64,000 bases of DNA from an uncultured Planctomycetia bacterium (GTDB lineage Bacteria > Omnitrophota > Gorgyraeia > VGKH01 > JBHPFN01): the NCBI GenBank assembly GCA_964406665.1, contig CAYOSQ010000006.1, positions 23,577 through 87,576 of the forward strand, in the 5' to 3' direction. The notes below the pieces were generated by a model. It worked only from the letters and a program-made list of their open reading frames with translations, was not told the origin of the DNA and made no database searches. Numbering within the stretch: position 1 is the first letter of the stretch; each line of letters begins with the position of its first letter. Shown here one piece after another: positions 47,069-60,808 of the stretch. The translations under genes and the position numbers were made by a program.

Positions 47069-49581
47069 TAGTCCTCCTTTATAAGACATATTTCTCTCTT
47101 GGAAAGAAAATAACACGAAATTGAAGAAATCACTATTATACCAATCGTTATGTAGGTAATCGGCTTCCAACCAGCCGTAGAATAACCAAATAATACATAA
47201 GCAACTGCAGAAGCCACGAATAGTGAAATTAACGCACAGTGACTACAATGACAACCAACACCTTTTTCAGATTTCTTAAATATAGAATCGGGGAGCAAAG
47301 AAAATATACTCGGCAATATAAACAATGTTGCCAAGGATGAAACCGCCATAATGCTAAACATGAAAAATCCTACGGTTCTATAAGGAATAAGTGGTGCTGC
47401 TAAAAGAGGCAAAAATCCAATGGCAACAACTAAGGCATTGCGGATTATTGCCCTGCCCGGACCGGAAAACATCTCTTTAGAGGTTGTTTCCCAAGAACCT
47501 TTCTCTCTGTATATCTCAAGCGCTCTTTGAATAAAATGAATTGCAAAATCAATAGATAAACCTAAAGTCAGCGCAGAAAGAACGGCAACCGGCATATCAT
47601 AATCCTTACCCACAAAACCCAAAAAGCTGTAGATGAAAAGTATTGTTACAGTAAGCGGTATCATAGAAATCAAGGCTTTTACAGGAGAACGGAACAAAAA
47701 CAACATCATAAAAAGCACAATAAAGAAACTTCCGGCAAAATTCTTCAACATCCCCGTAACCATATTATTTTGCCATATAACATTAATATAAGTCTTTCCT
47801 GACCATTCATATTTTATCGGTAAAGGCGCAGGATTCTCAGAGATATATTCATCAACAAGATCAATTACCTTGCTCATATCTTTATTATCTCCGCTTTTCA
47901 ATTGAAACCAAATATTTAACTTTGAGTATGCCGGATTTGTTAAATGCCATAAATCATCGGGCTTGTGAGAATTTTCAAAAGAAATTAATGACTGGGCAAC
48001 CGCAGCCCTAGAATCAGGAATAACATTATTTTTCTCATCTCCCCCAAGCAATTCATAATATATTTTTTTAACTATATCAGATAAAGAAGTTGTCTTGCCC
48101 ACATATTTACTTTTATCGACTTCTGCCTGAAGATTTTCCACATATTTAAGCATTGACGGTTCGAGAAAAATCTCATCATCTTTATTTTCGGCCTCCAAAA
48201 CAAGATATGCTTCATAGGTTCCCGAGAAATGTTCATTAAGAACCTTATCCGCCACTCTTATGGGATGGTTTTTAGAAAACCAGCGCACAGGATTATCGTT
48301 AACTTGTATTTTGCTAATTCCATATAAAGAAACAATAACCAACAAAACAGTAAAGGCTAAAACAAATTTGAATTTTTTAAATATTATATTTCTAATAAAC
48401 AAAAGAACAGCATCTAAAACCCGAGAATGATTTTCCTTTCCAGACTTGGCAAGTTTTTCAAATTTATTCTTCTTAAGAAGCATAATAAAAGCCGGGATAA
48501 AAGTAATGGTAAGTATCCAGGCTACGAGCACCCCTACCGCAACAAATACTCCGAATACCTGCACCGGAGGAATAGGTGAAAACGATAACGAGAAAAAACC
48601 AACCGCAGAAGTAAGCGAAGTAAATAACATCGGAGAGAATAGTTCTTTTACAACATGATTAACTGTTTTCCGAGGGTCATGAAAATCTTTATACTTATCA
48701 AAAAACTCACTTAATATATGAACAGAGTCTAAAACCGCAATAGGCATTAAAAATATTGGTATCATGGAACTCATTATATGGACCGGAAAACCAAAAGCGA
48801 TCAGAAGCCCCATAGTAATCACCACAGTAGCAATCGCAACAAGCATAGGAGCGATAATCAGCGTTACGGATTTGAAAAACACCAACATCAAAAGGAAAAT
48901 AATCAAACCTGCCAGAGGAGCAGAAATTGCCATCTGCTTAAACATCTCAGCGCCAAACTGATCTTCCGCAACAGGAAGCCCGGTTACGTAAAATTTTTCG
49001 TCTCCGGGAAATTTAGCGGCAATCTGCTTAATCTCTTGAGAAACTTCATAACTAATATCTTTCTTCTCAATTGGAACATAAAGTGCAACAGCCTTACCGT
49101 TAGAAGATACAACGCTGTCTTTAAACATTGGGTGGCTCTGCGCCTGACGCCTTATTTCCAGGGCTTGTTCTTGAGTAACTGGCGGTTCTTCCATCAACCA
49201 GTTAAACCTAACCGAACCCAATCCTGCTTGCTCAACATTATCTTTTGTAGAAGGTGCAACTATCTCATACTCAATAACTCCGTCTATTTTTTTTATTTCA
49301 TCGGTTATCTGAGCAACTTTTTTGAGTGTAGATACATTAAATACGCCGTTTTTATGATTATCGTTTACTATGCCTAGTACGATAAAATCATAAAGGGCAA
49401 ATTCCTGCTTAACTTCACGGCTAAACACTCGAACCGGAGCATCATCCGCAAGCATATTTTCAGGGTCAGTATCTACTTTAATCCGAGGAAATTGAACCAA
49501 CGCAAGTAAAACTAAAGCTGCGGTAAAATAAACAATTACCTTAGGACGACTAATAGAGAAAGAAATTAGTTTTCTAAACAT
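47068..49581 (-). CDS. MMPL/RND-superfamily exporter
   Basis: 837 aa; two blocks of about six TM helices each preceded by a large periplasmic loop. Confidence 0.75.
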   Translation of the reverse strand: MFRKLISFSISRPKVIVYFTAALVLLALVQFPRIKVDTDPENMLADDAPVRVFSREVKQEFALYDFIVLGIVNDNHKNGVFNVSTLKKVAQITDEIKKIDGVIEYEIVAPSTKDNVEQAGLGSVRFNWLMEEPPVTQEQALEIRRQAQSHPMFKDSVVSSNGKAVALYVPIEKKDISYEVSQEIKQIAAKFPGDEKFYVTGLPVAEDQFGAEMFKQMAISAPLAGLIIFLLMLVFFKSVTLIIAPMLVAIATVVITMGLLIAFGFPVHIMSSMIPIFLMPIAVLDSVHILSEFFDKYKDFHDPRKTVNHVVKELFSPMLFTSLTSAVGFFSLSFSPIPPVQVFGVFVAVGVLVAWILTITFIPAFIMLLKKNKFEKLAKSGKENHSRVLDAVLLFIRNIIFKKFKFVLAFTVLLVIVSLYGISKIQVNDNPVRWFSKNHPIRVADKVLNEHFSGTYEAYLVLEAENKDDEIFLEPSMLKYVENLQAEVDKSKYVGKTTSLSDIVKKIYYELLGGDEKNNVIPDSRAAVAQSLISFENSHKPDDLWHLTNPAYSKLNIWFQLKSGDNKDMSKVIDLVDEYISENPAPLPIKYEWSGKTYINVIWQNNMVTGMLKNFAGSFFIVLFMMLFLFRSPVKALISMIPLTVTILFIYSFLGFVGKDYDMPVAVLSALTLGLSIDFAIHFIQRALEIYREKGSWETTSKEMFSGPGRAIIRNALVVAIGFLPLLAAPLIPYRTVGFFMFSIMAVSSLATLFILPSIFSLLPDSIFKKSEKGVGCHCSHCALISLFVASAVAYVLFGYSTAGWKPITYITIGIIVISSISCYFLSKREICLIKED

Positions 49582-53762: not shown

Positions 53763-54161
53763 TTATTTCAACACAGAAGCCAAGCTTACAGATTTAAATT
53801 CTTCGATAGTAAGACGTTCGATTTCATCAATTCTCTTTTTTATCCTGCATGTTTTTATCTTAGGACACTTCTTTTTCTTAAACATATGATCATTAAACAC
53901 TATAGGACCCTGGAATATCTCAATTATATCTAATAAAACTATCTTCTTCGGATCTCCCGTAAATGAAAAACCGCCGCCTTTTCCCTTATATGATTTTATG
54001 ATTCCGTTTTTATTTAATATTTGTAATATTTTTCTTAAAAATGGCTTAGGTACTTTACTTTCAATAACCAGCTTATCCACCGATAATATCTCATCGCGGT
54101 TAGCTGCTAAAATACATAGCGCTCTAAAAGCATAATCTGCATCTCTGGTAATAAGTTTCAT
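53763..54161 (-). CDS. Rrf2-family transcriptional regulator (NsrR/IscR-like)
   Basis: Typical Rrf2 N-terminus MKLITRDADYAFRALCILA with wHTH; start at internal Met with AAGGAG upstream; ORF-track start 54254 is a GTG extension. Confidence 0.75.
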   Translation of the reverse strand: MKLITRDADYAFRALCILAANRDEILSVDKLVIESKVPKPFLRKILQILNKNGIIKSYKGKGGGFSFTGDPKKIVLLDIIEIFQGPIVFNDHMFKKKKCPKIKTCRIKKRIDEIERLTIEEFKSVSLASVLK

Positions 54162-55542: not shown

Positions 55543-55623
55543 TACACCTCCTTTTCAGTAAATGATACCATTATAGTATCATTTGTCAAGTTAAAAAAAT
55601 TATTTTTTTAAGCTAGTTTTTAC

Positions 55624-56061
55624 CTAGGAATGTTGCTGTCTTATCTGACTAATCCATTCTTCGATCTTCTGTTTTATTTCTTCTCTTACTTCTCTAGTTT
55701 CCTGCAATTTTGCATCTTCAGTCCCAGAAAAAAGCGAAGGATTTTTGAAACTCCAATTTTGTCTTTTTGCATTACCGGGGAAAACGGGGCACTGTTGAGA
55801 GCTTGATTCATCACATACAGTAATTACATAATCATATATTCTTTCCTGTTTACAAAAATCAAAAGCGCTTTTGGTTTTATTTTGCGAGATATCGATTCCT
55901 ATTTCTTTCATTACCTGTACGACTAAAGGATTCAATGTCCCCGGCTTCAAACCAGCGCTTTCTGCTTCAAATCTATCAGGAGCACTATCATTTAAAAATG
56001 CCTCAGCCATTTGGCTACGAGCAGAATTGTGGATACAGACAAATAAAACTTTTTTCTTCAT
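55624..56061 (-). CDS. arsC: arsenate reductase-like LMW-PTP family protein (thioredoxin-coupled ArsC type)
   Basis: 145 aa; P-loop CIHNSARS (CX5R) and downstream Cys pair CDESSSQQC. Confidence 0.7.
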   Translation of the reverse strand: MKKKVLFVCIHNSARSQMAEAFLNDSAPDRFEAESAGLKPGTLNPLVVQVMKEIGIDISQNKTKSAFDFCKQERIYDYVITVCDESSSQQCPVFPGNAKRQNWSFKNPSLFSGTEDAKLQETREVREEIKQKIEEWISQIRQQHS

Positions 56062-56155
56062 CTAGGTTCTCCGTAGGCTTATTATTATACCGCAAACTTC
56101 TATAATAGTTAAAAACTTTTTGTAGCCGCTGCAGAGGGCGGGGTGACTACGACAT

Positions 56156-56186
56156 TATCATTTAGCTTCGTACTCTCGCTAAATGA
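56156..56186. repeat. palindromic hairpin element, copy 1 (10-bp perfect stem, 11-nt loop)
   Basis: atcatttagc-ttcgtactctc-gctaaatgat; paired with copy 2 differing by compensatory stem changes. Confidence 0.6.
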
Positions 56187-56193
56187 TTGCTAA

Positions 56194-56222
56194 CTACCCC
56201 GACAAAAAGCAGTCAGGGTGGC
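56194..56222. repeat. 29-nt conserved box, copy 1
   Basis: taccccgacaaaaagcagtcagggtggct; 26/29 identical to copy 2. Confidence 0.6.
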
Positions 56223-56275
56223 TTCCAACTTATAAATTACCTCGCGCTTCACGCTCCATAAGTTGTGTCGTCGTC

Positions 56276-56304
56276 TTACCCCGACAAAAAGCGGTCGGGA
56301 TGGC
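56276..56304. repeat. 29-nt conserved box, copy 2 (contains perfect 6-bp inverted repeat cccgac/gtcggg)
   Basis: taccccgacaaaaagcggtcgggatggct. Confidence 0.6.
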
Positions 56305-56312
56305 TGCGCACT

Positions 56313-56343
56313 TATCACTTAGCTTCGTAATCTCGCTAAGTGA
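56313..56343. repeat. palindromic hairpin element, copy 2
   Basis: atcacttagc-ttcgtaatctc-gctaagtgat; stem position 5 T>C with compensatory A>G versus copy 1. Confidence 0.6.
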
Positions 56344-56441
56344 TGTGCTTGCCAATTTTACAGGCGCCTAGAAAATTCAAGAAGTTGTAGTTAAATTAAC
56401 TACTTGCAATAAGTTACAACTCAATTTTAATAGTAGGTGGC

Positions 56442-56479
56442 AGTCTCCGCTTCCAAGCGGAGACTACCCCTTTTAACCC
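56442..56479 (+). terminator. plus-strand intrinsic-terminator-like hairpin inside the intergenic region
   Basis: 9-bp GC-rich stem agtctccgc/gcggagact with 6-nt loop, followed by accccTTTTaa. Confidence 0.4.
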
Positions 56480-56586
56480 ACACCTTAAATTTTCAGCCTC
56501 AAACAGCAAAATCATTAATATTTTATTCTTTGTCATTGAAATTTGGTTATTGATTATTATTTGTTGCTTGAGATTTGTAATTTTCT

Positions 56587-56600
56587 CGAGTACGTACTCG
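56587..56600. promoter_or_regulatory. perfect 14-bp palindrome CGAGTACGTACTCG (operator-like)
   Basis: Self-complementary; shares a TACGTA core with the palindromes at 58361-58383. Confidence 0.35.
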
Positions 56601-56791
56601 GGTACATACTCTTAAAAACGATTGATTCGTTTCCCCGAAACGTGAAATCAATCGTATGCCAACAGAACTACGCAGTGACTACTGTCTCTCTAAAGTAAAC
56701 TTTAGGGAGCAGTCCCGCGTTTTATGCGGGGCGTAGTCAAAAAAGAATTAAGACAACTCTGGGAATCTGCCTAATATTCCTTTCTTTATAT

Positions 56792-56820
56792 TTGACTTCT
56801 TACCTTAATCATGGTCTAAT
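56792..56820 (+). promoter_or_regulatory. candidate sigma-70-like promoter for the radical SAM gene (TTGACT-N17-TCTAAT)
   Basis: -35 TTGACT at 56792-56797, -10 TCTAAT at 56815-56820, ending 2-8 nt before the GTG/ATG start, so possibly a near-leaderless transcript. Confidence 0.3.
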
Positions 56821-56822
56821 AG

Positions 56823-58271
56823 GTGACTATGAAATATAAACACGCACTTTTTCTCTTTCCTTATATAGAGGGCAATGCAACAAGCACGATGAAACTGTTT
56901 CCGCCCCTAGGCCTTGAATATGTGGCCACCAGCGCAAAGGATTTAGTTGAAAAAATAACGCTCTTAGACCTACGATACGAACCAGAACTCTGCGATAAAA
57001 ATAGTCTCTTAGAATTTGTACGCCAAGAGATTGATATTGTCTGTGTCAACATTACCTGGGATCGTCAGTTTGACGAGATCTGTGATCTTTTAAATGGAAT
57101 ACCGCAAGGGATTCCTGTTATCGTCGGTGGCTACAAAGCAACTGAACGGGCCCAAGAAATACTAGAGCGCTGCCCTACTGTCGCTATGGTTGTGCGCGGC
57201 GAGGGTGAAGAAACCATACGAGATATTTTTCAAAATCATCCACCGGAAAAAATCGAAGGCATTTCCTATAGAAAGAACGGACAGATACAACATAATAAAT
57301 TTCGAGCCTTTCCCGAAGTCGATGCAATAGCAGCACCCGATAGAACCTTACGAAGAAATAAATATCATCTAATTTTAAACGGGGTCCGCACAACCAACGT
57401 AGAGTTTGATTCGGTCTTAAGCGCTCGGGGCTGTCCGTTTAATTGTAAATTTTGTACATTTAATCTCAACCCACTCGGCCAGAAGCGTCCCTATGCCGCG
57501 CGCAACGTTACCTCAGTTGTCGATGAAATAGAAGGACTAACGGCTACCGTCATCCTCTTAGCAGATGACGAATTTTTTGCCAATAAAAAAAGGGCCGAGG
57601 CATTTTGTGACGAGATCATAGCGCGTAAAATCAAAAAGCGGTTTATTGCACAATCACGTATCGATGTGGCCAAACACCCGCAGCTGCTTGGAAAGATGGT
57701 TAAAGCTGGTTTTAAAGCGCTTCTGGTAGGCATCGAATCTCCGACCGATTGGATTTTGAAACAGATGAACAAAGGTTTCGATTCACAAACAATCAGGGAT
57801 GCTTTTAAAGTTCTTAAAAAGTACCCGATTTATTACCACGGATATTTTATTTACGGAAATATCGGTGAGACCGAAGAAGAAATGCTCGTTATTCCTCAAT
57901 TTGCAAAAGAGATAGGCGTTGACGGCATTACGTTTAATAAACTCAGAATAGAAAAATTCTCATCACTAAGAGAACTGGCGGAGAAAACCCCAGGATACCA
58001 CGTTACCGATACCGGTGCTTTGTATTCTGATAAGTATAGCCACGCGGCTTTGAAAAAAATAGGCAGAAGAATGAGATTTTCTTTCTATACGCCTATGAGA
58101 TTTATGAAGATGATAAAACGTGTTTTTGTCGATGCTCACTTCTTTTCTGCAGGTGAACTGGCTTCCTTTGCTTTTAGCATCCCACTAATGCTCATCGCTG
58201 CTTTAAAAAGAGAAAAACAAAAAGGCCGCTTAGGCGACTCCCTCAAACGTATTTTTATAAAAAATAAATAA
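56823..58271 (+). CDS. B12-binding domain radical SAM protein (class B rSAM), function unknown
   Basis: 482 aa; N-terminal cobalamin-binding Rossmann-like region, CxxxCxxC cluster motif (CPFNCKFC), amphipathic/hydrophobic C-terminus. Start either GTG 56823 or ATG 56829. Confidence 0.8.
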   Translation: MTMKYKHALFLFPYIEGNATSTMKLFPPLGLEYVATSAKDLVEKITLLDLRYEPELCDKNSLLEFVRQEIDIVCVNITWDRQFDEICDLLNGIPQGIPVIVGGYKATERAQEILERCPTVAMVVRGEGEETIRDIFQNHPPEKIEGISYRKNGQIQHNKFRAFPEVDAIAAPDRTLRRNKYHLILNGVRTTNVEFDSVLSARGCPFNCKFCTFNLNPLGQKRPYAARNVTSVVDEIEGLTATVILLADDEFFANKKRAEAFCDEIIARKIKKRFIAQSRIDVAKHPQLLGKMVKAGFKALLVGIESPTDWILKQMNKGFDSQTIRDAFKVLKKYPIYYHGYFIYGNIGETEEEMLVIPQFAKEIGVDGITFNKLRIEKFSSLRELAEKTPGYHVTDTGALYSDKYSHAALKKIGRRMRFSFYTPMRFMKMIKRVFVDAHFFSAGELASFAFSIPLMLIAALKREKQKGRLGDSLKRIFIKNK

Positions 58272-58308
58272 AAGTAGCGCAAAGACTAAGAAAATCTAAA
58301 CAAAAGTA

Positions 58309-58338
58309 CTGTCATTTTTGACAGGGCTTTTTGATTTT
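58309..58338 (+). terminator. terminator-like hairpin downstream of the radical SAM gene
   Basis: Short stem ctgtca/tgacag with tttt loop followed by ggcTTTTTgaTTTT. Confidence 0.4.
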
Positions 58339-58360
58339 GGTTACAAAGAGCAAAAAATTT

Positions 58361-58383
58361 GACTACGTAGTGACTACGTAGTC
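58361..58383. promoter_or_regulatory. tandem 10-bp palindromes ACTACGTAGT x2 (operator-like)
   Basis: gACTACGTAGTgACTACGTAGTc, about 80-110 nt upstream of the 154-aa ORF; each unit self-complementary. Confidence 0.4.
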
Positions 58384-58461
58384 GAAAAACAATCGCATCA
58401 CGAGCAAAGCAAATAAGTGTAAAACTCCATAGACTCCTTTCTTGACTAATAAGTTTTAAGG

Positions 58462-58926
58462 GTGTTTAATATGTATATGAATATCCTACTAAAAATATTA
58501 CAACATCATTTATTTGCACCAATCTGCTTAGCATCTATACTTGGTCTAATGCTGTGGAAAACATTTACCGAATGGCGTAGACCTCGTTTAAAAATTGGAA
58601 GATTTGACATTAAAGTTCTTCCAACTAACCCTGTTTTAGACAAGAAACACGAAAAGCGAGTAACTGTTGTTGTGTTTTTTGAAGTTAGAAACAAAAGTTC
58701 TTTAGATAATTCATTAGTAAAAAAGATTTATACACTTGATGGTGCTACTGAACCAATAGAGCGTTCCTCGCATTTAACTGTTAAAGGCAATACTACTGAA
58801 ACAGAGAGTAATTTGTCTGTCCATTTTACCCTGCCAAATGAAGAACCAAAAAACCGTAGGTTCACTATCAAGATTATTGACCATTTCAATAAGAAGCATT
58901 CCGTCAGCAAGTTTCTGAAAATATAA
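58462..58926 (+). CDS. membrane-anchored hypothetical protein
   Basis: 154 aa (ORF-track start is GTG; ATG alternatives at 58471 and 58477); one N-terminal TM helix, beta-rich C-terminal region; no recognised motif. Confidence 0.45.
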   Translation: MFNMYMNILLKILQHHLFAPICLASILGLMLWKTFTEWRRPRLKIGRFDIKVLPTNPVLDKKHEKRVTVVVFFEVRNKSSLDNSLVKKIYTLDGATEPIERSSHLTVKGNTTETESNLSVHFTLPNEEPKNRRFTIKIIDHFNKKHSVSKFLKI

Positions 58927-59040
58927 TATAATTCTCCGAGTATGTTTATATATAGCTAGGGGTGGCTGGGGGGGTTACCGTGGCGTCACCGTGGCGTTTT
59001 AGATAGAAAAACACACCAATTTAGACAAATTCATACAAAT

Positions 59041-59090
59041 ACTCCAACCAACAAAAATCCCCACAACCTTTTGAGTTGTGAGGATTTAAG
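59041..59090 (-). terminator. rho-independent terminator downstream of tRNA-fMet
   Basis: On the minus strand a roughly 13-bp stem (AAAUCCUCACAAC/GUUGUGGGGAUUU) followed by a U-rich tract. Confidence 0.55.
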
Positions 59091-59167
<77 letters not shown>

Positions 59168-59213
59168 ATATCTTATTTAACTGTCTGAGAACGGACCCGC
59201 GAATCCCAATGCT

Positions 59214-60808
<1,595 letters not shown>

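Follow-up and report, generated by a model that had tools for sequence, protein, structure and literature searches.

Three related double-palindrome modules around a B12-binding radical SAM gene of an uncultured Candidatus Omnitrophota member, tentatively read as a hairpin-forming extragenic repeat

The window analysed here, a stretch of 64,000 nucleotides (64 kb), belongs to an uncultured Candidatus Omnitrophota member and has been assembled repeatedly from marine metagenomes. Eight strain contigs are 99.7-100% identical to the window over the locus described below, and all eight are identical across positions 55600-58950. Public gene calls with Pfam assignments cover most of the window and all of the 46.8-64 kb portion around the locus, which comprises the following features:

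55624-56061, minus strand: low-molecular-weight phosphatase gene, left end of the locus
56062-56828: intergenic region of 767 nt between the phosphatase and radical SAM genes
56113-56790 (about 680 nt): hairpin-dense intergenic stretch with sites A and C, no coding
56829-58271, plus strand: B12-binding radical SAM gene, 480 aa, Pfam PF02310 and PF04055, flanked by palindrome sites
Spacer of 200 nt between the radical SAM gene and the 149-154-aa gene
58471-58926, plus strand: orphan gene whose product has an N-terminal helix and, according to the start codon used, 149-154 aa
59091-59167, minus strand: tRNA-Met (CAT), right border of the locus

The two plus-strand genes had been treated as an islet in the initial annotation, a description that suits the 149-154-aa gene, which is an orphan, but not the radical SAM gene, which is widely conserved in Omnitrophota. 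Orthologues of the radical SAM protein (63-78% identity) occur across the phylum and its nearest homologues are all Omnitrophota, the best of them being 78% identical with no closer relative; the protein scores under every curated NCBIfam cut-off. The gene neighbourhoods of these orthologues differ between genomes. At four of seven loci the radical SAM orthologue lies within a few hundred nt of a tRNA gene (L011:4477-4844, L032:4684-4848, L033:4781-5003 and window 59091-59167), and L011 has a second copy, about 200 nt further downstream, of 25 nt from the 3' end of tRNA-Val (ggttcgagtcctctaccgcccacca), a pattern such as integration would leave. At L034:1716-2999 another orthologue is followed immediately 3' by a DDE transposase gene (PF01609), which fits the variable neighbourhood. 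The orphan protein matched only itself among 5.8e9 proteins, and an exhaustive search added two weak relatives (E values of 1e-4 and 7e-4); it is without a Pfam or NCBIfam match, and AlphaFold2 (mean pLDDT 46) provided no usable model beyond the N-terminal helix. Its gene has a low GC content (0.33) and adjoins the tRNA. Just 3' of the orphan stop codon, after a G-rich run and before TTTTAG, lies another perfect 11-nt tandem repeat (ACCGTGGCGTC x 1.9, 58977-58997), which differs in sequence from the repeat at site B described below and was called terminator-like in the consensus scan.

The locus also marks a change of gene orientation, as all 23 ORFs of at least 200 aa between 13 and 49.5 kb, within the 13000-56061 portion of the window, lie on the minus strand, as do the called genes from 49.5 kb to 56061, and the first orientation switch from 13 kb on is the 56062-56828 intergenic region. 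A replication origin, suggested by this strand switch, by repeats and by an AT-rich stretch (56470-56585, within 56113-56790), was rejected since GC skew follows gene orientation only and neither DnaA boxes nor any other origin signature was seen in the window. At the right border, four strain contigs match the window up to 59097/59098, that is, the last 7-8 nt of tRNA-Met, beyond which unrelated DNA replaces the tRNA-Met body (L002:12270-12893, L003:11660-12279, L005:4404-4815 and L006), and the sole SNPs in 3.5 kb cluster at 58958-59064. Together, the strain junctions and the SNP cluster point to the 3' end of tRNA-Met as a putative insertion or recombination hot spot.

The palindromes of the two intergenic regions form a local family of three related modules of about 35 nt, referred to as sites A, B and C:

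58361-58383: site B, GACTACGTAGTGACTACGTAGTC, with dyad units GACTACGTAGTG (58361-58372) and GACTACGTAGTC (58372-58383) having one G in common
58385-58389, plus strand: A5 run of site B, in the context GTAGTC-G-AAAAA-C
56587-56618: site A, palindrome CGAGTACGTACTCG (56587-56600), then a second unit GGGTACATACTC (56600-56611), TT, and AAAAA (56614-56618)
56667-56682: left part of site C, ACTACGCAGTGACTAC, matching 58362-58377 at 15 of 16 positions
56683-56732, plus strand: insert of site C, 49-50 nt, with two hairpins, CUCUCUAAAGU/ACUUUAGGGAG and CCCGCGU/AUGCGGG
56732-56748: right part of site C, CGTAGTCAAAAAAGAAT, matching 58377-58393 at 15 of 17 positions

The two abutting palindromes which the initial annotation had placed ahead of the 154-aa ORF were recovered as a pair of ACTACGTAGT boxes in site B (58362-58371 and 58373-58382) that make up a perfect 11-nt tandem repeat (Tandem Repeats Finder: period 11, 2.1 copies, 100% match), located 79-101 nt 5' of the GTG at 58462 and 88-116 nt 5' of the ATGs at 58471 and 58477, the starts in public gene calls. 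The perfect 14-bp palindrome reported at 56587-56600 is likewise there, as CGAGTACGTACTCG, and site A is also a tandem pair (period 12, 2.2 copies), its 12-bp unit GAGTACGTACTC (56588-56599) being directly followed by the imperfect unit GGGTACATACTC. The half-sites that had been listed as a further recurring motif are present in sequence, with some coordinates shifted by one base (56143-56150, 56675-56682, and GTAGTC at 56733-56738), but those at 56675 and 56733 turn out to be one split copy of the 58362-58393 sequence. The halves of this copy, site C, are identical to 58362-58393 at 30 of 33 positions, non-palindromic flanks included, and the insert sits exactly at the dyad (CTAC-GTAG) of unit 2, its final C being assignable to either side. 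The remaining half-site, GTGACTAC at 56143, is found again at 56675-56682, at 58370 and, within a gene, at 47239; it probably stands outside the module family since it aligns with ATGGCTGC in the sister copy of its own internal repeat.

Further features of the three modules are as follows. An A5 run follows each of them by 1-2 bases, with AAAAAC trailing site A too, and the units are perfect or near-perfect dyads (12/12, 11/12 and 14/14 matches) whose half-sites are all identical within each site. The unit period is 11 at sites B and C and 12 at site A, and positions 3 and 10, which read C and G in every unit at sites B and C, read G and C in the two site A units. A TTGACT hexamer lies 54 nt beyond the end of site C, and another 59 nt beyond that of site B.

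Taken singly, the perfect palindromes of the window are unremarkable, those of at least 12 bp numbering 29 (21.6 +/- 4.4 in shuffles) and those of at least 14 bp numbering 9 (6.0 +/- 2.4), and TACGTA alone, the core noted in the initial annotation, is at background (9 vs 6.2). Taken together they are non-random. When up to two mismatches are allowed, GASTACGTASTC matches the window four times, always within sites A and B; the joint pattern of sites A and B with the A-run, a pattern designed after seeing the sites, gave 0 matches in 100 shuffles; and the site C halves had 0.01 and about 0 expected chance matches per window, with 0 colinear half pairs of this type in 300 shuffles. Pure chance was rejected for the ensemble on the basis of the GASTACGTASTC clustering, the joint pattern and the split-copy shuffles, and the three related double-palindrome copies are real and more than chance. 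Hexamers of the GACTAC/GTAGTC type are also concentrated here, with 7 of the 12 in the window lying in the two intergenic regions, which make up 1.5% of it.

The family is, at the same time, strictly local. A motif search over 76 kb of the same genome (the 64-kb window plus 12 kb) found no double-palindrome site beyond the three copies, and the single two-mismatch match in the extra 12 kb was taken as chance. Self-BLAST of three intergenic regions gave local matches only, on which ground a dispersed repeat in the window was rejected. Upstream of six orthologous radical SAM genes (69-78% protein identity) the motif is absent; TAGTCGAA and GTAGTCAAAG occur near the start codon in L010 and L011, and not in L009, L032, L033 and L034, and were put down to chance. 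Pattern scans of three public collections, which did not return the window's own contigs and therefore apparently do not include the genome of this organism, yielded one unrelated Pseudomonadaceae match among species-representative genomes, eight unrelated and mostly high-GC matches among metagenome contigs, about the chance expectation, and no match among viral contigs.

With 30 of 33 positions identical, including the non-palindromic flanks, sites B and C are, on sequence grounds, duplicated DNA and not convergent sites. Alternatively, the copies could be neutral relics, a chance palindrome duplicated by replication slippage and by local segmental duplication, with functionless copies. Perfect palindromes of at least 12 bp are indeed about as frequent as chance would make them, tandem repeats of 11-16 nt in two copies are frequent in this genome (13 in 64 kb), another perfect 11-nt repeat lies at 58977-58997, and the copies are purely local and without conservation in relatives. 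Such relics are nevertheless unlikely, as dyad symmetry and the double-unit layout have been kept in three diverged copies, which requires paired substitutions, and as the copies are packed into one 1.8-kb stretch beside other stable hairpins.

When folded as single strands, with z-scores taken against shuffled controls, site B forms a 13-bp hairpin (58358-58370 with 58374-58386; -16.7 kcal/mol, z -5.25), site A a 9-bp hairpin with one mismatch (56588-56611; -9.3 kcal/mol, z -3.1) and site C a three-way junction (-36.3 kcal/mol, z -4.8) closed by ACUACGC (56667-56673) pairing with GCGUAGU (56731-56737) around the two inserted hairpins. Differences from copy to copy keep every stem pair, in a sample of three pairs in three copies, and where the site B stem has a U-A pair, the outer stem at site C has C-G. 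These pair-preserving differences are as would be predicted under a pairing constraint, while the changes at site A would fit a dimer-binding constraint equally well.

Sites A and C are embedded in the 56113-56790 stretch, which stands out structurally from the rest of the window (z -8.4 over 731 nt) and contributes 4 of the 15 most structured 120-nt segments out of 1,065 across 64 kb. It contains internal repeats (56133-56187 with 56290-56344, and 56195-56242 with 56277-56324) and further hairpins (56439-56468 and 56618-56655), several of the hairpins being closed by GTAG...CTAC, and GTAG/CTAC words are in excess (15 vs 4.6 expected). No homologue of this stretch was found. In a search with Rfam 15 only tRNA-Met passed and nothing credible was seen at E <= 5 in 55900-59300; a known RNA family or riboswitch, the cobalamin riboswitch included, was rejected for want of an Rfam match. 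The stretch could be an undescribed structured RNA or repeat cluster. A bolder proposal, which we regard as very improbable, is that the 680-nt region and the double palindromes together represent an undescribed lineage-specific class of Omnitrophota hairpins centred on CTAC-GTAG that targets itself by inserting hairpin modules at the dyad, in the manner of a miniature mobile or recombining element, or a large structured leader RNA of the B12-dependent radical SAM gene.

The interpretation ranked first, and held tentatively, is that of a hairpin-forming extragenic repeat acting as stem-loops. It is proposed that a single repeat of about 35 nt, consisting of two abutting 11-12-nt dyad units on GA(C/G)TAC-GTA(G/C)TC followed by A5, may have spread locally around the radical SAM gene as DNA was duplicated and that, if active at all, it would most likely work in single-stranded nucleic acid, folded into a stem-loop. 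RNA would be the most plausible setting, either a long leader of the radical SAM gene or, between the terminator of that gene and the orphan gene, RNA from read-through or a leader, and the role of the repeat there would resemble that of REP-type hairpins buffering transcript ends. We infer both the transcription of the sites and any effect of the hairpins, which would be likely to bear on transcript ends or stability. This ranking rests on the duplication with flanks, a dyad that tolerates an insert while its stem is kept, the variable spacing and the pair-preserving differences, as well as on the hairpin-rich setting, the lack of conservation and the lack of a nearby regulator. A period of 11 or 12 would alter only the loop size of a hairpin, whereas it would alter the geometry of abutting protein dimers.

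Some observations do not sit easily with a hairpin repeat. The arms of a hairpin need not be palindromes, and the flips at site A keep the units self-complementary, which suggests a constraint on the unit itself, of the kind that dimers binding to duplex DNA would impose. A terminator-like hairpin precedes site B, there is no copy elsewhere in the 76 kb, unlike in true REP families, and the positions of the sites relative to candidate promoters have to be considered. The elements concerned are:

58309-58334, plus strand: terminator-like hairpin CTGTCATTTTTGACAG with a T-rich tail, between the radical SAM gene and site B, which follows after 27 nt
56792-56820, plus strand: TTGACT-N17-TCTAAT, ending 8 nt 5' of the radical SAM ATG
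58442-58470: TTGACT-N17-TTTAAT, preceding the orphan gene

Both TTGACT-N17-T(C/T)TAAT modules end 6-8 nt ahead of an ATG. They were omitted from the consensus promoter scan, which found no promoter overlapping the sites, because the second base of their -10 hexamer is not A. The TTGACT-N17-TNTAAT modules upstream of both genes could be promoters; if so, the mRNAs would be leaderless or near-leaderless, and all three sites would lie upstream of the transcription starts and outside the mRNA.

A sequence-specific operator on double-stranded DNA is considered less likely than a stem-loop, and several features of the sequence lean against a regulatory interpretation of the palindromes. In its full form, which is plausible but less favoured, two dimers of one distantly encoded regulator would bind cooperatively and co-regulate the radical SAM and orphan genes. 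The suggestion of one regulator for both genes, made in the initial annotation, holds insofar as a non-random, shared palindromic element precedes each gene, and is weakened by the duplication, the split dyad, the spacing and the lack of conservation. The geometry, with dyad boxes one helical turn apart, would fit ribbon-helix-helix (MetJ/Arc) or small HTH controller proteins better than large HTH dimers. Every unit is itself a perfect or near-perfect dyad with identical half-sites inside each site, the 11-12 bp unit spacing is about one helical turn, the same core precedes both genes and occurs nowhere else in the window, and sites C and B end 54 and 59 nt before TTGACT hexamers; a comparable layout, GACT-N3-AGTC-N4-GACT-N3-AGTC, is known for controller proteins (PMC2175313).

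When the scan was relaxed to two ACTACGTAGT boxes within 12 nt, it detected arrays in six unrelated viral contigs without homology to the locus. These intergenic arrays resemble protein-binding arrays, which favours an operator, and ACTACGTAGT can serve elsewhere as a repeated box that is probably bound by protein. Their positions include L024:6311-6400, L027:8660-8790, L029:7523-7600, L026:439-558 and L028:13117-13180; L024 and L027 carry 3-5 ACTACGTAGT boxes at about 16-nt spacing, intergenic and beside small and large terminase-like genes, L029 has 21-nt iteron-like repeats, and the giant-virus contigs L026 and L028 have longer tandem repeats. A literature search for ACTACGTAGT or AGTACGTACT as a binding site returned primers or unrelated sequences only.

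Against operators stand the spacing, which differs between sites (11 vs 12 bp), and site C, where an insert of about 50 nt splits the dyad and would destroy a double-stranded dimer site, the closing stem being kept. The flanks common to sites B and C are those of duplicated DNA and not of a selected consensus, the sites lie 55-200 nt upstream of the candidate promoters and not over them, and the motif is missing upstream of the six orthologues, has no extra copy in the 76 kb and is not above chance in the three public collections. As the initial annotation had stated for the islet, no regulator gene is evident at the locus, nor is there one close by: classic transcription factors are represented among the window gene calls by NrdR and an Rrf2 protein (53763-54161) alone, the gene of the latter heading an hcp/ferritin-type operon. 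No dyad similar to the sites was seen ahead of Rrf2 in the upstream part read, and neither gene bears such a site in its own upstream region. Ribbon-helix-helix, XRE-type and restriction-modification genes are absent from the window gene calls, the orphan protein was rejected as an autoregulator for having neither a DNA-binding domain nor a usable structure model, and sigma-54 upstream activating sequences and CIRCE, LexA and CtsR boxes, compared by eye against consensus sequences, do not fit.

The modules could also be recombination or transposition sites, bordering a cassette or serving a small mobile element as ends or as targets, in which case the 50-nt insert would be a dyad-targeted insertion. 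Sites C and B are direct repeats (16 + 17 nt) that bracket a 1.7-kb radical SAM segment with its own terminator, the orthologues lie in differing genomic contexts, the locus adjoins tRNA-Met, an insertion point in other strains, and the insert lies exactly at the CTAC-GTAG dyad. This explanation is very unlikely in view of the other evidence, as recombinase, transposase and RAYT genes are missing from the window gene calls, neither an empty nor an inverted form was found (8 of 8 strain contigs are identical over 55600-58950), and the entire 33-nt site is duplicated and not only a core, unlike attL/attR pairs. The insert has neither terminal inverted repeats nor a second window copy, for which reason a MITE was also rejected. 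A blastn search against phages and plasmids gave no match, arguing against recombination sites and leading to the rejection of a phage or plasmid origin. An att repeat of a tRNA island was rejected too, as no copy of the tRNA-Met 3' end was seen, by reading, in 56062-59090.

Gene regulation and repeat content are almost unstudied in the uncultured Omnitrophota. Should the sites be operators, they would offer a first handle on the regulator and the conditions controlling a widely conserved B12-radical SAM enzyme; should they be hairpin repeats, they would provide an example of REP-like elements in this phylum. Comparison with known systems gives no sign of a new mechanism and places the element in a familiar class, that of short palindromic cis-elements, of which it is a local and lineage-specific member.

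Only one strand of one module looks like an intrinsic terminator, namely the minus strand of site B, where the scan marked a hairpin with AAATTTTTT behind it. This hairpin is not at the end of any minus-strand gene and its stem is set apart from the T-run by three A residues, no T-run accompanies site A or site C on either strand, and the plus strand has an A-run at all three sites; a terminator was rejected, as the only resemblance comes without a gene to terminate. Ribbon-helix-helix operators, such as the met-boxes of MetJ and those of Arc, Mnt and CopG, consist of tandem short dyad boxes repeated every ~8-11 bp and bound by a dimer of dimers on one helix face. Tandem short dyad boxes are common to both systems, but here no such gene is adjacent, the spacing varies (11 vs 12) and one copy is split by an insert; the met-box sequence, AGACGTCT, is unrelated to the site sequences.

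The C-boxes of restriction-modification systems have the layout GACT-N3-AGTC-N4-GACT-N3-AGTC upstream of the C gene (PMC2175313). As in these, two neighbouring GACT...AGTC dyad boxes are present (in C systems two dimers bind cooperatively), and site B starts with TTGACT, the -35 hexamer which a C half-box can overlap. The arrangement here is instead GACT-N4-AGT-GACT-N4-AGTC, with boxes abutting or overlapping by one base, site A has GAGT...ACTC, and there are no C, HTH, restriction or methylase genes nearby, so that both spacing and context depart from those of C-boxes.

The REP and BIME elements, GTAG-tagged repetitive extragenic palindromes transcribed as RNA hairpins near gene ends (PMC3733652), are present in high copy number and dispersed over the genome (PMC3733652, PMC2817692). 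In contrast, the present family amounts to three copies in 1.8 kb (56587-58389) and none in the other 74 kb examined, and its arms are palindromic themselves, which REPs do not require. The GTAG tag of a REP is unpaired at one end, whereas CTAC-GTAG here is the paired core at sites B and C, and no RAYT/Y1 transposase appears in the gene tables. The resemblance of the three sites to REP elements lies in the small size (20-40 nt), the extragenic location and the imperfect palindromes, which form stem-loops (-9.3 to -36.3 kcal/mol), in the merging of adjacent units into larger structures and in the enrichment of GTAG/CTAC words at the locus, and the position of the sites at gene ends would be compatible with a role at the RNA level such as transcript stabilisation.
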